A stretch of 64,000 nucleotides of DNA from Leucoraja ocellata (lineage: Eukaryota). The stretch spans positions 1,054,001-1,118,000 of the forward strand of contig JAWMAR010000384.1 in NCBI GenBank assembly GCA_036785375.1. The letters run 5' to 3'. The translations under genes and the position numbers were made by a program. The notes below the pieces were generated by a model. The model searched no databases and had not been told where the DNA came from. It was given only the letters and a program-made list of their open reading frames with translations. Each line of letters starts with the position of its first letter. Positions within the stretch are counted from its first letter, which is position 1. Below are positions 3,256-28,333 of this stretch, one piece after another.

Positions 3256-4576
3256 CTCTGATTGCTGTTTCTTCACTTGCACTGATTTTCGTGTCAGTTT
3301 ATTCAAGATGTCTATTTCTGGCTTCTTCCACCTGGAATACACTGTTCAAAGTAGTTATTTAACCTGTTTGCTCATTTTTATTTGCAATATTCCTATTATC
3401 ATTTTTAAGTGGTTCTGGCTACCCGTTCCCCCTAATATGATTCCTGTTCTCTCCTTTATGTTTCTTCCTGTCCTTTTTACTTTTTTTCACTTTGGCTCTC
3501 CAAGTGGCTAGAATTTCTGCTAGATTTTGGATGTTTTAAACACTTTCCTCTTATTTTGTGTTGCTCCTGACCATTTTAGTCCTCCATGACTATTTTCTGT
3601 CATCAAGCATGTTCCAGTTTCCACCCAGACTGGAAGGATGTGTAAATTGGTAGATTAATTGGCAACCGAATTGCCTCGAGGGGAATGGATGGGAATGTAG
3701 AATTGATCTCAATGGGTGGTAGATGGTTGGCATTGACTCATTGTGCCAAAGGCCTTGTTTCCATGCCTCATGACTTTATGATATGATAAGTGACGTTCTC
3801 ATCTCCAGATGAATTGCCAATGTATCACATTTAATTCTTTGCAACACCTCCCACTGGTCGTCTGTCATCCTGCCCATTAGCAAATGTGCACATTTTTTCC
3901 TGGACAGTCTGCCTCATTGCATTGAAGCTAATCTTGTCTCAATCTAAAATCTTAGTGGCTTAATGTTTTTCCCTTTCGAACACTGCATTAAGTTCTGACA
4001 ACTATATTTTTAAACCTGGGAACCCCTTTGTGTGATGTGGTAAAATTAGAAGTAGGATGCAATTATGAAAAGTGTTTTTATTGTGTTTTTATAATTAGAG
4101 CAGAGAAGCGGGTGGGCAGAATGAATCAAACCCCCCTCAGGGCGGCAGGTGCTACAAATATGTTGGGAACGTTAACTCGTGTTATGATGACTAATGTTCA
4201 AGCATTGTTAGGCTCTTAGCTCGATCTGACTCAATACTCATTATTAAATCCAATGTGGTCTGTCAGTTCTGCAGAAAATAGACGTAGAGAATTATTTTGA
4301 ATGTTCTTGTGTGAAATGCAAAATAGGCTTTCAGCCCATCATGTCTGTGCTGGCTTTAAATGAGTTCTCCAGCCTGATTCCCATCTTGCAATGCCAGGTC
4401 CATGGCCTTTAGCTCACTGTTATTCAACCGCACATCCAACAGTTGTTTAAATGTGATGAGACTTATAGCCTCTATGAACCTTTCTGACTGTGAGTTCAAC
4501 ATCCAACTCCTCCCTGCTACACCCCTCCAAAAAATTGAATGTGAACTCTCCACTAAGAGACAAAGTAAATGGAAAG

Positions 4577-4776
4577 ACACTAAAAGCTGGAGTAACTCAG
4601 CAGGGCAGGCAGCATCTCTGGAGAGAAGGAATGAATGACGTTTCCGGTCGAGACCCTTCTTCACCCGAAACGTCACCCATTCCTTCCTTCCAGAGATGCT
4701 GCCTAACCCGCTGAGTTACTCCAGCTTTTTGTGTCTATCTTTGGTTTAAACCAGCATCTGCAGTTCCTTCTTACAC
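4577..4776. mobile_element. Fold-back Penelope-like terminal repeat insertion
   Basis: TSD AAGTAAATGGAAAG at 4563-4576 and 4777-4790. About 70-bp inverted arms (~4576-4650 vs 4664-4735). Nested in a CR1 relic. Confidence 0.8.
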
Positions 4777-6029
4777 AAGTAAATGGAAAGGCCATTATGG
4801 CCCCTCATAATTTTGTGTACCTCAATTAAGTCTCCCATCAGCTGCTTCTGTTTGAAAGAAAACAAGCATAGCTCATCCAGTGTTTACTATTAGCAAAATT
4901 GTTCCAGTCCTGGCAACGTCGCCATAAATCATCTCTATGCCCCTCCAGTGCAACCACCTTTCTGTGGAATGGTGACCAGGGCAGCATGTATTTTAGTAGG
5001 CTAAGGTTTAGCTATACTTTATGTAATGCAAGCATAACCTTCTGATCTATTGTTCTGTCAATTGTCTATTTTTCAAATTCATTTTTGGGTACTGGGTACA
5101 GTTTGATTTTTTTGATTTTTTTTGGGGGTGTTTTTCTCCAGCTTCCAGCACCTATTGTCTCTTGCATCTTCATGAAGAACTTTGCCCACATCCTCTATCT
5201 CCAACCATTATTGCCTACCTACTAGTTTCCGCTTGGTCTCTAATAATTTATCTTTTGGAGTTTAATGGTTTTTATGAGCCAGTATTTTCACCACTCCTTC
5301 TGTTTTTAATCACCATTTTAATTACACTCTAGCACTTGCACGTCCAGTTTTCTGGTTGGCGCCTGATTATAAACTTCCTTTTTTCTCCTTATCTTAATCT
5401 CTGCACCTTGTCACTCATCTAGATTTGATAGGTCAACCCTCTTTGTTTCCCTGAATTTTTCAATCTCGTCCATGTATGTCTGAGATTTGTTTTACTTCTC
5501 CAAATTCAGTTTGGTTTTACTAATTTATTCTTCATCTAAAATAATCAACCTACGTCAATTTAGAATCTTTGATTCACTGCCTTTGTCGTGACCTGTTTTG
5601 TTTCATCTCAAATGATATGGACATTAAAATCTCACATTAACCGTCCTTTTTTTTGTATTAAACATCCAATCTACATACAAAGGGTATGTACAACCTCCAC
5701 TATTATCTCAATTTATTATTTCTACCCACGGTGTCCACTCATGTAATCCTTCCTTATAATTGTAGCCATTTCATCGATGATTAGATGATTACTTCTAAAT
5801 TTTTCCTTAAAACTGTGAATATTTTGTTCCCATTCCTGGCTCTTTTGCAGCCATCTCTGTTCTATTCCCAATTGATAACAACCATGTAAATGTATGGCTG
5901 CTGTTAATTCACTTTGTTCCATATATGTTTGGGTGAAAATACTTACTTAGGCAGCTGACTTGAATCTCCAACATGACATTAATTTATCTTCTTTTTAGCT
6001 GCTTCATATATTTTCATGCCTCACTTTTG

Positions 6030-6360
6030 TGTGCCCCACCTGAATATGCAATCATTTATCCCTTTCCACCTATATCCTTCCTCTGGCTTCACAATTTGTA
6101 CCTCTTCTATCCAGATCACACATTGTCTTTTCATTTCTGGCCTTTGTCCAGTCATCTGCGAATCAAAACCCCCTTTGCCTGTATCCACCTATCACTTCCA
6201 GCTTTCTCCCCCTGACCACCAATCACCACATTCAGTGTAAAAAAGAGCCCTGACCCAAAACAGCGCCTATTCGTATTTTCCAAAGATGCAGCCTGCCTTG
6301 CTGAGTTACTCCTGCACTATTCATTTGGTAAACCAGCATCTCTGTTTCCTTGTGTCCTCG
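6030..6360 (+). mobile_element. Older Penelope-like 3' fragment
   Basis: Degraded core plus gctgagttactcc...aaaccagcatct tail. Confidence 0.55.
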
Positions 6361-7222
6361 TATCTTTGAGTATTCATTTTACCCGTGGCTCCAAAGTGCA
6401 ATTTCTAACTTCAACCATATTTCCACATCTTTTAGTTGGGAAGGGTTACTCCTTTTTTGGTCCTCCGTTTGAATTGCCAACTCTTGCCCTTCCCTCTTTA
6501 CTCTTACATCATTTAAAGTCCTCCTTGCATCCATTCTCCTTGCACAGATTACAGTTGTGCGTGGAGTCCATTTTATCAGTGCCATTCCTTGTTCCTAGCC
6601 TAGGGTTGGTGTGGTTGAAAACTCACGTTCCCACATATGTCATTGGGAGCATATGGTATGACGTCCTCTGACAAGTAAATCATTTTTCTTGTGTGAACAA
6701 TCATAGGATTGAATACGTAACCATTAAAACCTAGTTATTTTTTGTGATTTATGACAATCTGATTTGTCATTTTTTGTGATTTATGACAATATGACAATAT
6801 TGTTTTGTTGGTGGGCATAATTTTTGTAATTGAGGTAATTAACTTGTGTTCTAATCTTACAATTAAAAATATATATTTCAGAGTTCAACCCAGTCAGTGA
6901 TATTGTACTTTGAGATGCATTTTATTTTAATTTGAATAGTATATAACAGATGCAGCCTATCAGTCTGTAGCTGATCTGCATTGTTTTTGTCCATGGCTAT
7001 TCATGACCATTTTTAAAAGATTTTGTATTTGATTATATGCATATTGTATACATGCATATAGATGTTTTCAGTTCTAGTGCATTTAGATTTGCAGCCAAAT
7101 GCAAGTGCAAATTACATTATCGATTTCCACTTGGAGAGATCACAGGAGTGTGGTTGCTTTTAATTCTGTAAAATGTGCTTTTGATCAAGGATGCATCTCT
7201 ATTCTTCTGTTCTGTTTTACAG

Positions 7223-7273
7223 GTGTAGGGAAAAGTAGCCTCTTACTACGATTTGCAGATAACACATTTTCAG
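7223..7273 (+). CDS. RAB35: RAB35 coding exon 2 (exon 1 lies upstream of the window)
   Basis: ttttacag|GT...TCAG|gtaagc. 51 nt encoding (G)VGKSSLLLRFADNTFS(G), the P-loop end, matching vertebrate Rab35. Confidence 0.97.
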
Positions 7274-7433
7274 GTAAGCACAATTGGATTCTTGTTTTCA
7301 TCGTTTAATATGCAGTGCTTCATTCCCGTGAGGATAGGAATTTTCAATTTGCAGTTTCTTCAGGTTTTTTCCTTTGTCTTTTATTCAGATGTAGTAGGGT
7401 GACATCTTCCTTTTAACTCCTAGAAAATAATTA

Positions 7434-7605
7434 CTTAACATCATCACTAAAGAAGATGATTTGGTTGTTTTATTACTTTGTTATTTATGTGATCCTGATG
7501 TGTGATTTTTTTTTTGTTTTCTATATTACAACAGTGACTACACTATAAAAGTAAGAGGTGTTTTATTCGTTACAGAGCACTTTGAGATTTCCTCAGGTTA
7601 TAAAT
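7434..7605 (+). mobile_element. Old Deu-SINE/L2-tail-like relic
   Basis: tattacaacagtgactacact...agcactttgag...tcctcaggtt. Related minus-strand relics near 14000-14260, 15325-15520, 24290-24620, 27870-28170 and 53220-53450. Confidence 0.5.
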
Positions 7606-8039
7606 TATTATCCAACATCGTTGAGCTTAATATTGTTCAGAAAATTATAGTGTCCCTGTGAATGTAGGTTCTTTGTTTTTTCTTTTCATATTTGTTTCTT
7701 TCATTACTTTCCAGGTGTGTTATCCCAAGCTGTCATAATTTACCACTTTCATCAATTTCAGATCAATGCACTAATTCTTCTCCAATCCTCCCATCACAAG
7801 ATGATTGCATCAAATTCTTAACTGTTCAGACGGTCTTGGGAGTGTGAACTGTACATTTGAAATGTGCTCACTATTGTAATGAAAGGCATTTAACAGTGGT
7901 TTTGGTTTATAAAATACACTGGTCAGTAATGAGAAATAGATGCTGGATGATGAGCCCTTAGGGAGCAGTTTATGCAGCATTTAAGCTTCGGTACTGTGAG
8001 TTAATTTGATTAATTGTACACAATAGCTATTCATAGTGC

Positions 8040-8169
8040 GTAAGAAGGAAATTAAGATGCTGGTTTACACCGAAAATAGACACAAAAAGCTGGAGTAACT
8101 CAGCGGAACAGGCAGCATGTCTGGAGAGAAGGAATGGGTGATGTTTCGGGTCGAATCCCTTCTTCAGAT
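8040..8169 (-). mobile_element. Penelope-like terminal repeat fragment
   Basis: TSD TATTCATAGTGC at 8028-8039 and 8170-8181. Minus strand begins tctgaagaagggattcgacccgaaacatc. Confidence 0.78.
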
Positions 8170-8707
8170 TATTCATAGTGCTTGTGACATCGTATTGCAT
8201 CTCTATTCTTTGGAATCTTCAGGGCACTGCTGGACCTCAAGATAGACTGATGCTCTCATTCTAAGAGTTGCAATTGTATAACATCCTTTGATATTGTGAA
8301 AAGTCTCTTAAAGATACATTAGTTCCTCACAAATTAACTACATAGAAAGGATGCAGTTGGATGTCAGTACATGTTTCCTGCACTGTTCTCTCATTGGTGC
8401 TTTTACAAATCAGTATGTTGAATATAATGATAGGCTCCTTTTAGGTTTTGTGTGCCAGTTGAATGGCACCACTGCGGATCATGCCTTTTGCCCTGCACCT
8501 GTTTAACGCCCTTCTTTCCCTTTGTCCCACAAGAATGCATTTGTCATTATCCAGAGAATTATGGAGGTAACACCGAGTCATACAGCATGAGAATAGGCAC
8601 TTGCCAACCAAGATGCCCCATCTAAGCTAGTCCCATTGCCTGTGTTTGGCCCATATCCCTCAAAACCTTTCTTATCCATGGATCTGTTAAAACATGACTC
8701 TTCATAT

Positions 8708-9009
8708 TCTTAACATCATCACTAAAGCAGATGATTTGGTTGTTTTATTACTCCCAGTTTTGCTAGCCCTTGCTGTCTCCTCCCCTTCCTTAACCCTCGA
8801 GCTGTCTCCTCCCATTCCCCCCCGCCTTCGGGCTCCTCCTCCTCCCTTTTTCCTTCCCTCTCCCCCCCACCCCCCATCAGTCTGAAGAAGGGTTTCGGCC
8901 CGAAACGTCGCCTATGTCCTTCGCTCCATAGATCCTGCTGCACCCGCTGAGTTTCTCCAGCATTTTTGTCTACCTTCGATCTTCCAGCATCTGCAGTTCC
9001 TTCTTGAAC
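8708..9009 (+). mobile_element. Penelope-like retroelement 3' terminal fragment with 5' captured sequence
   Basis: TSD ACTCTTCATAT at 8697-8707 and 9010-9020. Pyrimidine-rich tract, hammerhead-like core, and the family tail ccagcatctgcagttccttctt. Confidence 0.75.
8875..8916 (+). ncRNA. Minimal type-I hammerhead-ribozyme-like motif in a Penelope-like terminal repeat
   Basis: CTGAAGA 8882-8888, extra A, stem II GGGT-TTCG-GCCC, GAAA 8902-8905, palindromic ACGT in place of helix III, TC with predicted cleavage after 8909. Stem I catcagt/gcctatg has an internal loop. Confidence 0.6.
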
Positions 9010-9568
9010 ACTCTTCATATGATCCGCTTTCCCCTTTTCTTCCATACTGACTTGATGCTTATGCAGATATTTTTGGTGATTTCTTGTCTCAATTTGTCAG
9101 TGCTGAAATATTTTTCAAAACTGTCGCATGGCAACGTGCTACATGGTAGTTGTAACTTTACCCAGCCTAAAGTTTTACACTGTTGGTATTTTCAATGACA
9201 TATTAGCTATACTTTCCAAGAGCAACGTTTTACAAGAAATGTTATGGACTAAGCAATCAATGCTTTTCTCCTCTGCCCTTCGATGCACATGTGTGTGATG
9301 CCCACTGCAACAATTGCATTTCTGCTTGGTTGAGGCCACTGTAAGGCATTGTTTTGACCTGGTTTATAAATGGCAAGCTGTTTATAAAAGCATAAAATGT
9401 TACATTATTTAAAGTCGGGCCAATATGAGAAAGAATCAGTTACATTTTCACAGCAATGATCTCTCAATGAAAGGTCACTGCCTTTCAGTGTAGTTTCTCT
9501 CACCTCAAATGCTGCTTTTTATGTATTTCCAGCACTTTCCATTATTCTTTCAAATTTACAACATCTGT

Positions 9569-9803
9569 AGATAGACACACAAAGCTGGAGTAACTCAGCG
9601 TGACAGGCAGCATCTCTATAGAGAAAGAATGGACTGAAGAAATCTGAAGTCTCGAACCCAAAACTGAATTACGTTTCGGGTCGAGGATCTCAGGCTACTT
9701 CTTCCCATTCCTTCTCTCCAGAGATGCTGCCTGTCCCGCTGAGTTACTCCAGCTTTTTGTGTCTACCTTTGGTTTAAACCCGCATCTGCCGTTCCTTCCT
9801 ACA
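9569..9803. mobile_element. Fold-back Penelope-like insertion nested in an older copy of the same family (~9465-9825)
   Basis: TSD TACAACATCTGT at 9557-9568 and 9804-9815. Inverted arms surround a scrambled centre. Confidence 0.75.
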
Positions 9804-10078
9804 TACAACATCTGTTGCACTTTTTGTAAAAATCCAACTTGTTATTTTGAATGTTGTGCTTTTAACGGGAAAGGAATGCTAATGTTTATACATCATGTTT
9901 GAGTGAAAACCCGGTTACTGTCGGGAAGCAGTTTACCCTAGAAGTTAATTAGTCTAATTCCTCTGCTAGGCTTGTATTGATCTTCTGACAAAGTCATCGG
10001 CTAAACTAGCTTGAATTTTCTGCTTTGTCTTTTTGCATCAGAGCATGCAAAGATATATCTTTCTGGTGTGAATTTTAA

Positions 10079-10234
<156 letters not shown>

Positions 10235-18357: not shown

Positions 18358-20739
18358 ATATAACAACTCGTTATGTCCAATCATCACCCAACCCTGACTG
18401 GCTGAGCCTGTTCTGTAAGAGAATTGGGTCTCAACTGATATGTAATCCAAGTTACTACTATTATTGGCCTCGCTTCTAAATGGTATTTGGTACTTGGCCA
18501 CGGCACAGAATGTCTGAATACAAACTGATGTTCTGTTCTGGGGGAGGGGATGGAAGGCAGAGGACAGTTTTTCCTCAATAAATTCCAACCCTTGTTAGCT
18601 TTCATATTTAATTTGTGACTTTCTTCCATTAATGGTTACCATGAGACTAGTGAATGAACATTAAAAAAAAACTGCAGAAATCTTTAAATTAAAACAGAAA
18701 ATGCTGGAAATACTGAAGAGGTCAGGCTGGGTCTGTGGGAAGGAAAATAGTCACGTTTCAAGCTGGGGACCCTTTTGTCAGTACTGGGAGAGAAAAGAAG
18801 CGTGTTAAGCTGCCGGGAGAGTGGGAGGATGTCTCTGTGGGTAAAGCTTGGGTGATGGTGGGATAAGCTGTAAACAAGGCTATCTGATCAGCAATTAGTG
18901 GGAGCAGATACAGAGTGAGAACATAGGCTCTGTGGGAAGAGAAACAGCGAAACAATTATCCCATTGTCACACCTACTGTGTCCAAAAGGAAAAAAACCTT
19001 CCCACCTCCAATCACCCAACAAGTTAGCAAGTTTATTTTTCCACCTTCCAGTTTTGGCAAAAGATCTTCATCCTGAAACGTTGAAAACGATCATTGAGGA
19101 TGTTTTGTCACACATGCTCACTGATTGTGGTCTATGGATCAGAAAGTTAAATTTTGGAGGATCTAGACCATCTGCGCACTAATGACCAGCCTCTCAAAGC
19201 ACTTAATGATGGAGGCCTGACCTGCTGTGTATTTCCAGCCTTTTTTAATTTTAGGCTACTGGCTGCATGGGCAATTATTCTGCTTCTAATGGGCAACGTT
19301 CACAGACTGCAGGAAGAAAAACCTTCAAGAAGTGTCCTCTGCCAGATTCATTTTCCTTAAAATTAACTGAGTTTTGGGTGGCCTGGGTCAAAGCAGTTCA
19401 TTGGCTAACGTGAAGTGGTGGATTTTCGAGGAAGTGTCCAAACATTGCCAAATCATGATTAATTTCTATTGTAGAAACAGTTCTCTGAAAATTTAAAACC
19501 ATAATCAGCAAAATACCAGCTCGTAATACAGATGCATTATGCTCAAAATCATAATACAGATGCATTATGATGAGTTCCATCCTTCCCTTTTAGGCAGGCA
19601 TATGACTTTCTTTATTTTATTCTTCTTTCGTGTCCATCTTCCATGTTTCAAATGTTGACATTGCTGTCATCGTCAAGAGCTGCCAAGTATATAACTTCTG
19701 GCAACAACCAGTGAGAGCCATCACTTGTTGCAATAGATGATGGTGGTAGCAGAATTAGCTCAGGATACTTCCAGTTTCCAGCCCAGTGACGTGGACGCTT
19801 CTGTTACGGGGCCTTTATTTTATTAAAAATACAGCATGGAAACAGGCCCTACAAACCACCAAGTCCATGTCGGCTATCAATCACCCATTCCCATTGGTTC
19901 AGTTATTCCCCTTTCACATCCACTCCTTGCACATTCCGTCCATGCCAGTCACTTTTTACATGTTCACTCTTGGGAAGGCCGATCTGAAGTCTGTGATGGT
20001 GACCTTGGATGCAGGTGCACCTGAGACTTGACAATGACATAATTTCACAACATTCTGTTAAAAACGAGCTTAAAATGCATTGAACTTGTCGGAGAGATGC
20101 ATTGTTGGCAGCAAAACTGCCCGGCTTTAATTTGTAGTCAGTTATAGCATGCTAGCTTGCCACAATCAATAGGCTTCCCTGATAGCTTCACAAAGATCAT
20201 ACCTAGATTTCCTGAACCGGTCAGGATCATTCGACTTGATCGCCACAAGCTTGAAAGATAAAGATTAGGACCCTTCTTCAGTCTGATCTGCTGAGTTACT
20301 CCAACAGTTTTTTTGTAAACCAGAGCTTGCACTTCCATGTATCACCACAAACATAGATTTCACCAAGCAGTGGACCTCGCAGATCATCAATGGTTTCTGA
20401 ATTGGGAACATTTGGGTTCATTTATTTGGTGTGCAGCCCTGTATGTACTTAATGACTGAGATATGTGATGGCGGTGGCACACTCATTTGAGTTGGGAGTT
20501 CAAGTTTAAGTTACATTTATTGTCACATGCACCAATTGGTACAGTGAGATTTAAGTTACCATACAGCCATACGAATGAAACTAACACAATACACGATGGG
20601 ATTTAACTTAAACATTCCTTGTTCTGCAGGCCACATTTTAAGGAGTGACAAATGGCACTTCTTTATCAGTGTTTCTTCCCCACCATTTCACATGTTTGCC
20701 TGTATACTGTGTGTTAAAACACAGTTGCCTCTACTTATC

Positions 20740-28208: not shown

Positions 28209-28333
28209 GTATTACAGAGGCACTCACGGGGTTATAGTGGTATATGATGTCACCAGTGCAGAATCATTTGTTAACGTCAAGCGGTGGTTACATGAAATAA
28301 ACCAGAATTGTGATGATGTGTGTCGGATACTGG
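28209..28333 (+). CDS. RAB35: RAB35 coding exon 4
   Basis: ttggcag|G...CTGG|gtatgt. 125 nt, YYRGTHGVIVVYDVTSAESFVNVKRWLHEINQNCDDVCRIL. Phases are consistent with flanking exons. Confidence 0.98.

Follow-up and report, generated by a model that had tools for sequence, protein, structure and literature searches.

A hammerhead motif in RAB35 intron 2 of Leucoraja ocellata as the probable passenger of a recent Penelope-like insertion

The hammerhead motif in the second intron of RAB35 in Leucoraja ocellata is best explained as part of a recent insertion of the 5′-truncated end of an endonuclease-bearing Penelope-like retrotransposon (PLE), likely an inert passenger in its host gene, and we assign this reading a probability of about 85%. 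The locus lies in a window of 64,000 nucleotides (contig JAWMAR010000384.1, positions 1,054,001 to 1,118,000), and coordinates are those of the window unless a copy elsewhere is named. The RAB35 locus itself is minor, a single young copy out of a very large number. The family to which it belongs is young, very abundant and sharp-ended, and in it the genome shows that the cut site does not define the inserted ends.

The host gene is read on the forward strand, with coding exon 2 at 7223-7273 and coding exon 3 at 10110-10233, the latter identical to Rab-35 at 41 of 41 positions; an exon at 28210 also has Rab-35 as its best match. Coding exon 1 sits some 12 kb upstream of the window, which makes 7274-10109 intron 2; the motif is sense within it, as the sequence-only reading had placed it. 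Older members of the same repeat share this intron, namely an antisense copy at 8040-8172 (reverse strand, 78% identity over 128 nt) and a head-to-head pair of arms at 9569-9798, found by similarity and profile search, whose cores are lost. A second, unrelated high-copy repeat lies at 8602-8690, just upstream of the insertion.

The inserted element occupies 8751-9009 on the forward strand and over 260 nt matches the 3′ end of L091, a full-length copy, at 95% identity. It comprises the last codons and the stop (8764-8766) of an ORF for a reverse transcriptase (RT) and endonuclease (EN), the end of this RT-EN ORF being read in relatives, then a pyrimidine-rich 3′ UTR, a terminal repeat (pLTR) with the hammerhead, and a tail. 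The tail, at 8978-9009, corresponds to the optional 30-40-nt PLE tail delimited by the bimodal 3′ ends of the subfamily, and the RAB35-intron copy has the long 3′ end. The insertion is flanked by an 11-bp target-site duplication whose left copy (8697-8707) and right copy (9010-9020) are identical. At the 5′ junction, and placed within the target duplication, is a 44-nt filler (8709-8752) that matches 43 of 44 positions of 7434-7477, a source 1.27 kb upstream in the same intron; it likely arose by a template switch at integration. Among the next-best matches, 39 other genomic copies are 96-99% identical over 8870-9015.

The empty site is represented in a related species, where a single contig in runs X21/X22 (one sample) joins 8694 to 9013. 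In X17, with flanks identical to the window, contigs run into the insert from both flanks, and together these observations indicate that the insertion is lineage-specific. The empty site and the missing helix III speak against a domesticated intronic hammerhead of the RECK type, which is marked by a conserved orthologous intron site and a stable helix III. The contig holds two copies of a 3.1-kb region that includes the insertion, inverted relative to each other and 97.8% identical (L001 and L002; G000:C384:1061370-1064515 and 2003763-2006908), and similar duplicated pairs are found elsewhere (L010/L030, L032/L033, L035/L048); such regions are likely uncollapsed haplotypes or segmental duplications.

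The motif is a minimal type I hammerhead (min-HHR) at 8880-8911 on the forward strand, recognised by its sequence, by a descriptor match and by the consensus in Fig. S3 of PMC4209133 (Cervera and De la Pena 2014). Stem I consists of 2 bp between GT at 8880-8881 and 8910-8911, the core CTGAAGA (8882-8888) is followed by an extra A (8889), and stem II of 4 bp is formed by GGGT-TTCG-GCCC (8890-8901). GAAA (8902-8905), CG and TC follow at 8902-8909, the palindrome ACGT (8905-8908) stands in place of helix III, and C17 is at 8909 with the predicted cut at 8909/8910, such that C3 to C17 spans 8882-8909. Core, extra A, stem II, GAAA, CG and TC are thus as the earlier reading had described them for 8875-8916. 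Its short and interrupted stem I was half right: the stem is short, with 2 bp across the family and an A-C mismatch at position 2.3-1.3 in 223 of the 359 copies that cover the motif, while the outer C-G pair 8875/8916 depends on a private T>G change of the RAB35-intron copy.

These features agree with the definition of PLE min-HHRs in PMC4209133, which includes the extra nucleotide and the palindrome: the core reads CUGANGA...GAAA..UH with an additional nucleotide after A9 and G10.1-C11.1, and a palindromic 15.2/16.2 replaces helix III. The ACGU form had been taken for a special variant. It is instead the commonest published form and no new variant, as C-G occupies 15.2/16.2 in 29 of the 56 rows of Fig. 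S3 by our count; among the 359 motif-covering copies, CG is found in 156 and its CpG-decay forms CA/TG in 139.

A strict minimal-hammerhead descriptor matched once in the window, at the RAB35-intron motif, and 37 times in a 1.4-Mb genome sample, with every match from the Penelope family and none in three shuffles, which bears out the claimed intactness of this copy. No other hammerhead family was detected by this descriptor in the sample. A loose core pattern gave 13 matches in the window against 5.5 expected, weak evidence by itself, and an Rfam scan at E ≤ 1 left the motif undetected. Two Rfam matches to microRNAs (9569-9767 and 4611-4698) were rejected, being head-to-head repeat hairpins. 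A weak Rfam match to the CPEB3 ribozyme at 19748-19825 (reverse strand, antisense in RAB35 intron 3; 23.4 bits, E 0.088, gathering score 35) is probably due to chance.

Relatives of the inserted copy continue upstream into a single ORF with RT plus a GIY-YIG endonuclease at the C terminus. In one 647-aa frame the RVT_1 domain was matched at E 2.3e-6 and GIY-YIG at E 6.2e-4, both significant yet below the Pfam curated cut-offs, and the DKG motif before RT and the CCHH motif in the endonuclease, as defined in PMC8557442, were read in the translated L020 and L091 sequences. A CX4CxxC linker lies upstream of the GIY-YIG motif. A CX2-5CxxC linker is assigned in PMC8557442 to the Neptune and Nematis clades and given there as absent in Penelope/Poseidon, and the parent element accordingly fits Neptune/Nematis, without separation of the one from the other. 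A long proline-rich repeat region lies N-terminal to RT. Of 7990 scored, 1523 were homologues of the RT-EN protein at E ≤ 1e-50, those among the matches listed bearing RT families, and the named homologues of highest identity (62-72%) come from Chiloscyllium, Rhincodon, Hypanus and Mobula; a PDB search with this protein returned nothing at E ≤ 0.01.

L091 is a full-length copy in which direct repeats of 131 bp, sharing 95% identity, stand 4.04 kb apart with a frameshifted ORF between them. The hammerhead motif is carried by both of these terminal repeats. Direct repeats in L091, 5′ truncation, bimodal 3′ ends with an optional 30-40-bp tail and head-to-head pairs together characterise the repeats as pLTRs. 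The assignment to Penelope-like minimal type I hammerheads therefore stands, given RT and GIY-YIG in relatives, the motif in both L091 repeats and the fit to the consensus of PMC4209133. In L245, which runs from the 5′ pLTR into the ORF, one frame is open from just past the TGA of the core through the terminal repeat and into the ORF; the first ATG of the ORF lies beyond the tail and is overlapped by AG/GTATG, which resembles a 5′ splice site.

The extent of the family was estimated by sampling 10 kb at each of 140 fixed positions on large contigs (1,399,400 bases), which gave 609 profile matches, most of them decayed. Extrapolation yields about 1.5 million, a figure that counts each arm of pairs separately and may be inflated by duplicated haplotypes, several loci being present in pairs 97-99% identical including their flanks. 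In the window, 24 profile matches correspond to about 20 loci after merging of head-to-head pairs, compared with none in a reversed 0.8-Mb control, in agreement with the approximately 20 repeats first noted. The motif is intact in one of these 24 matches and fully intact in 39 of the 359 motif-covering copies of the sample, and some 90,000-96,000 intact motifs are extrapolated genome-wide (from 37 and 39 per 1.4 Mb). At L116:7668-7996 there is a tandem array of units of about 66 bp from the 3′ part of the repeat, without the 5′ half of the hammerhead.

Variation among the copies had been taken as the mark of a conserved structure, and this argument was not supported. The arm at 4.65 kb actually reads GGGT-CTCG-ACCG and is damaged, the copy at 38.55 kb has lost both CUGA and GAAA, and the differences in stem II amount to loop changes and one U-A/U-G swap, with no compensatory pairs. 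A covariation score of 0.208 against 0.213 in shuffled alignments was obtained from 39 distinct rows that were preselected for a near-intact core, in a family whose uniformity deprives the comparison of power; in these rows helices I and II show one-sided U-A/U-G changes only, and loop II varies. RNAalifold returned no consensus structure for 41 copies. Across 306 full-span copies, conservation at non-CpG core positions (0.89-0.95) is the same as in the body, and at CpG core positions it is 0.65-0.75. Inserted copies decay neutrally, with core CpG positions lost fastest. Between subfamily consensuses, none of 11 non-CpG core columns change as opposed to 17 of 54 body columns (p = 0.025), or 2 of 13 core columns when CpG columns are included (p = 0.21), which is a weak indication that the active lineages are under constraint.

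The lack of compensatory pairs and of an RNAalifold consensus, together with a stem I of just 2 bp, would suit a hammerhead that is vestigial. A pyrimidine tract at 8860-8881, ending in CAG (8878-8880), is located directly 5′ of the motif and could act as a sense cryptic splice acceptor in RAB35 intron 2. This tract and the bases TCAGT, which resemble an initiator, overlap the 5′ edge of the motif and would offer other grounds for its preservation. Penelope carries both an internal promoter and an intron at this place (PMC2377424, PMC4209133), and the intron of Drosophila Penelope ends at helix I (PMC4209133). Against the vestigial reading, the metazoan consensus is matched by every core position, by the nucleotide added after A9, by G10.1-C11.1 and by the palindrome, and the motif stays permissive under each of three near-core changes between subfamilies (stem II U-A to U-G, stem I U-A to U-G and C17 to U17). 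We regard it as unlikely that the motif is a mere relic.

The ends of inserted copies bear on how the element is copied. They were analysed in the subfamily of the RAB35-intron copy, of which 79 of 86 copies were usable, with positions given relative to C3. The 3′ ends are bimodal, at +83 to +99 in 41 of the 79 (near +93) and at +123 to +130 in the other 38 (near +128). This bimodality is that of the PLE tail, which in the lizard element PAc, an Anolis Poseidon, is attributed to RT starting at two internal sites (PMC11167929). The 5′ ends lie beyond -8 in 26 of the 79, none of them between -31 and -8. A further 33 begin at -7 to +3 (one of these being a duplicate row and one probably from another subfamily), 17 at +4 to +25 and 3 later than +30; at the cut site (+26 to +30) there are none. 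In a set drawn from every subfamily, made up of 351 copies in which no native upstream sequence was detected, out of 425 kept from the 609 at ≥85% identity, 158 start at -5 to 0, where the -5 bin is censored and may conceal copies with undetected native upstream sequence. This set also has no peak at the cut site, with 13 starts at +26 to +30 compared with 26 at +20 to +25 and 19 at +31 to +36. L091 starts at -2. Of 20 ORF-proximal repeats, 8 start at -9 to +2 and the other 12 are partial tandems, but the query was biased towards copies that include the 5′ edge, and these repeats are uninformative for the cut site. The concentration of 5′ ends at the 5′ edge of the motif and their absence from the cut site suggest that uncleaved RNA is the likely template of insertion.

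Adjacent copies are arranged head-to-head in 102 of 144 pairs and head-to-tail in 32. Target duplications of at least 10 nt were found for 107 of 518 testable matches (control 3%). Among head-to-head pairs within a single target duplication (e.g. L229:5578/5674, L129:5163/5165 and L113:6391/6401) and with both arms listed, 24 of 27 combine an arm that has the short end (+93) with one that has the long end (+128), as judged by eye. A cap-derived extra G at the 5′ junctions was considered and rejected: G is found at -3 in 6 of 9 junctions at -2, and microhomology with the inverted arm accounts for several of these. No shared spliced first exon was apparent by eye upstream of the stubs.

Judging from the DNA junctions alone, the parent RNA likely begins 2-5 nt 5′ of the core, and the element protein would prime RT internally, either about 93 nt or about 128 nt beyond the core. 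Truncated ends like the RAB35-intron copy would come from priming in the 3′ repeat, whereas priming in the 5′ repeat followed by run-off at the RNA start would give stubs of about 100-130 bp, often head-to-head. The template is likely uncleaved RNA, with the cut dispensable for insertion, in agreement with PAc (PMC11167929). The ribozyme likely cuts only if the element protein refolds the motif or joins two repeats. A bolder reading, which we put forward as a possibility and as distinctly less than probable, is that the hammerhead opens the transcript and that a protein-triggered cut clips a capped leader of about 30 nt as an off-switch or translation switch. This would explain the conservation of only 2 bp of stem I; the cut would not be what makes ends competent for insertion, and the stubs primed in the 5′ repeat, often paired head-to-head with one short and one long tail, would be a record of two-strand priming at the two sites. 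The edge at -7 to +3 could alternatively be caused by the splice acceptor formed by the pyrimidine tract and CAG (8878-8880), or by stalling of RT, and fast decay of cleaved RNA could account for the missing starts at the cut site.

In the model proposed in PMC4209133, the hammerheads of the 5′ and 3′ terminal repeats in a tandem or full-length transcript would pair and cut, releasing a unit or circular RNA as the template of insertion. The motif in both L091 repeats, the 12 partial tandems among the ORF-proximal repeats and the constancy of the core between subfamilies except at CpG are in keeping with it. The ends are harder to reconcile, with none of the 79 at the cut site, no peak there among the 351 and junctions some 30 nt upstream of it; moreover adjacent copies are mostly inverted, and hammerhead mutants of PAc insert normally (PMC11167929). 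Release of a unit template by self-cleavage is unlikely for this family.

Folding argues against an effect of the RAB35-intron copy on host RNA. Stem II has a probability of at most 0.002 in five of five contexts for the RAB35-intron copy and a median of 0.0 over 34 intact copies, although nearest-neighbour models take no account of the tertiary core or of folding during transcription. A double-hammerhead dimer, resting on 4 + 2 + 2 bp, reaches -7 to -13 kcal/mol versus -24 kcal/mol for the best alternative, a gap of 11-17 kcal/mol. In a fold of 7980-9850 the entire motif is taken up by pairing with the antisense copy at 8040-8172, in a duplex of -163 kcal/mol, and pairing with antisense neighbours is by far the stronger (-81 to -187 versus -27 to -36 kcal/mol). 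The hammerhead fold of this copy is therefore predicted to be disfavoured and masked by its antisense neighbour. At 8893-8905 the loop change of the young subfamily creates an inverted repeat; it spans stem II and GAAA and is a competitor of the hammerhead fold. Given the absence of stem II in the folds, the unfavourable dimer, the antisense pairing and the lack of a second intact copy in the window, cutting of host RAB35 RNA by the motif is unlikely on these models.

The sequence-only reading had gone further and suggested that sense copies might pair within or between host pre-mRNAs; dispersed copies would then dimerise, cut introns and affect host RNA genome-wide. The copy in RAB35 is indeed intact and sense, intact motifs are extrapolated to tens of thousands genome-wide, and a minimal hammerhead from Schistosoma shows weak in vitro cleavage as dimers and trimers (PMC4209133). 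Within the window, however, the 24 matches include no other intact copy, and two same-strand motifs occur in only 1 of the 140 10-kb stretches (30 regex family-like matches). The dimer and antisense energies also weigh against the proposal, as does the lineage-specific insertion, absent in a related species, and sense copies are not depleted between RAB35 exons 2 and 5 (7 sense and 5 antisense family matches, numbers too small for testing). Cleavage of host introns by dispersed copies would be a major finding; present evidence points the other way, and we consider it very improbable. The accompanying view that the motif could work only as a dimer was too narrow, since the hammerhead of the lizard PLE cleaves only with the element protein (PMC11167929).

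Of the known systems, the min-HHRs of PLEs (PMC4209133) are among the closest. They share CUGANGA with the extra nucleotide, a G-closed stem II, GAAA, a palindromic 15.2/16.2 and UH, and like the RAB35-intron family they are found in the two pLTRs of complete copies and in truncated copies dispersed in their thousands. The stems here lie at the short end (stem II 4 bp, stem I 2 bp), though a 2-bp stem I is also found in the Culex, Drosophila and Oikopleura rows. The copy density is far above the 4,000-9,000 motifs given for coelacanth and Xenopus, and the 56 examples of that paper include no cartilaginous fish. In vitro activity of min-HHRs is low there even for dimers, and the function of Penelope hammerheads is called unclear in PMC8557442. 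No published description of the family was found in a literature search for hammerhead-bearing Penelope elements in sharks, skates and Chondrichthyes.

PLE-derived non-LTR retrozymes have been reported in one chondrichthyan genome (bioRxiv 10.64898/2026.07.22.740005), and are likewise non-autonomous and carry type I hammerheads. They form head-to-tail arrays with a hammerhead in each unit, whereas the RAB35 copy is a single truncated end; a retrozyme was rejected here because the window holds no head-to-tail array and adjacent pairs are predominantly head-to-head. The endonuclease-bearing (EN+) Neptune/Nematis PLEs (PMC8557442) agree with the parent element in the RT and GIY-YIG ORF, CCHH, DKG, the linker zinc-finger, pLTRs, partial tandems, an inverted 5′-truncated partner and a 30-40-bp tail that is often one-ended. 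The N-terminal proline-rich repeat region and the dominance of very short stubs set the RAB35-intron family apart from them.

PAc (PMC11167929) also has its hammerhead in the pLTR, two internal RT start sites that match insertion 3′ ends, target strands that can both be primed, and uncleaved RNA as template. It differs as a Poseidon without the linker zinc-finger, and its ORF starts at stem II, whereas the first ORF ATG of the RAB35-intron family lies past the tail. Protein-assisted cleavage has been demonstrated for PAc, whose hammerhead mutants still insert, and is putative in the present family. The RAB35-intron family would thus seem to be a further case of the known minimal-hammerhead PLEs, and one that supplies a near-intact element for studying protein-assisted cleavage.
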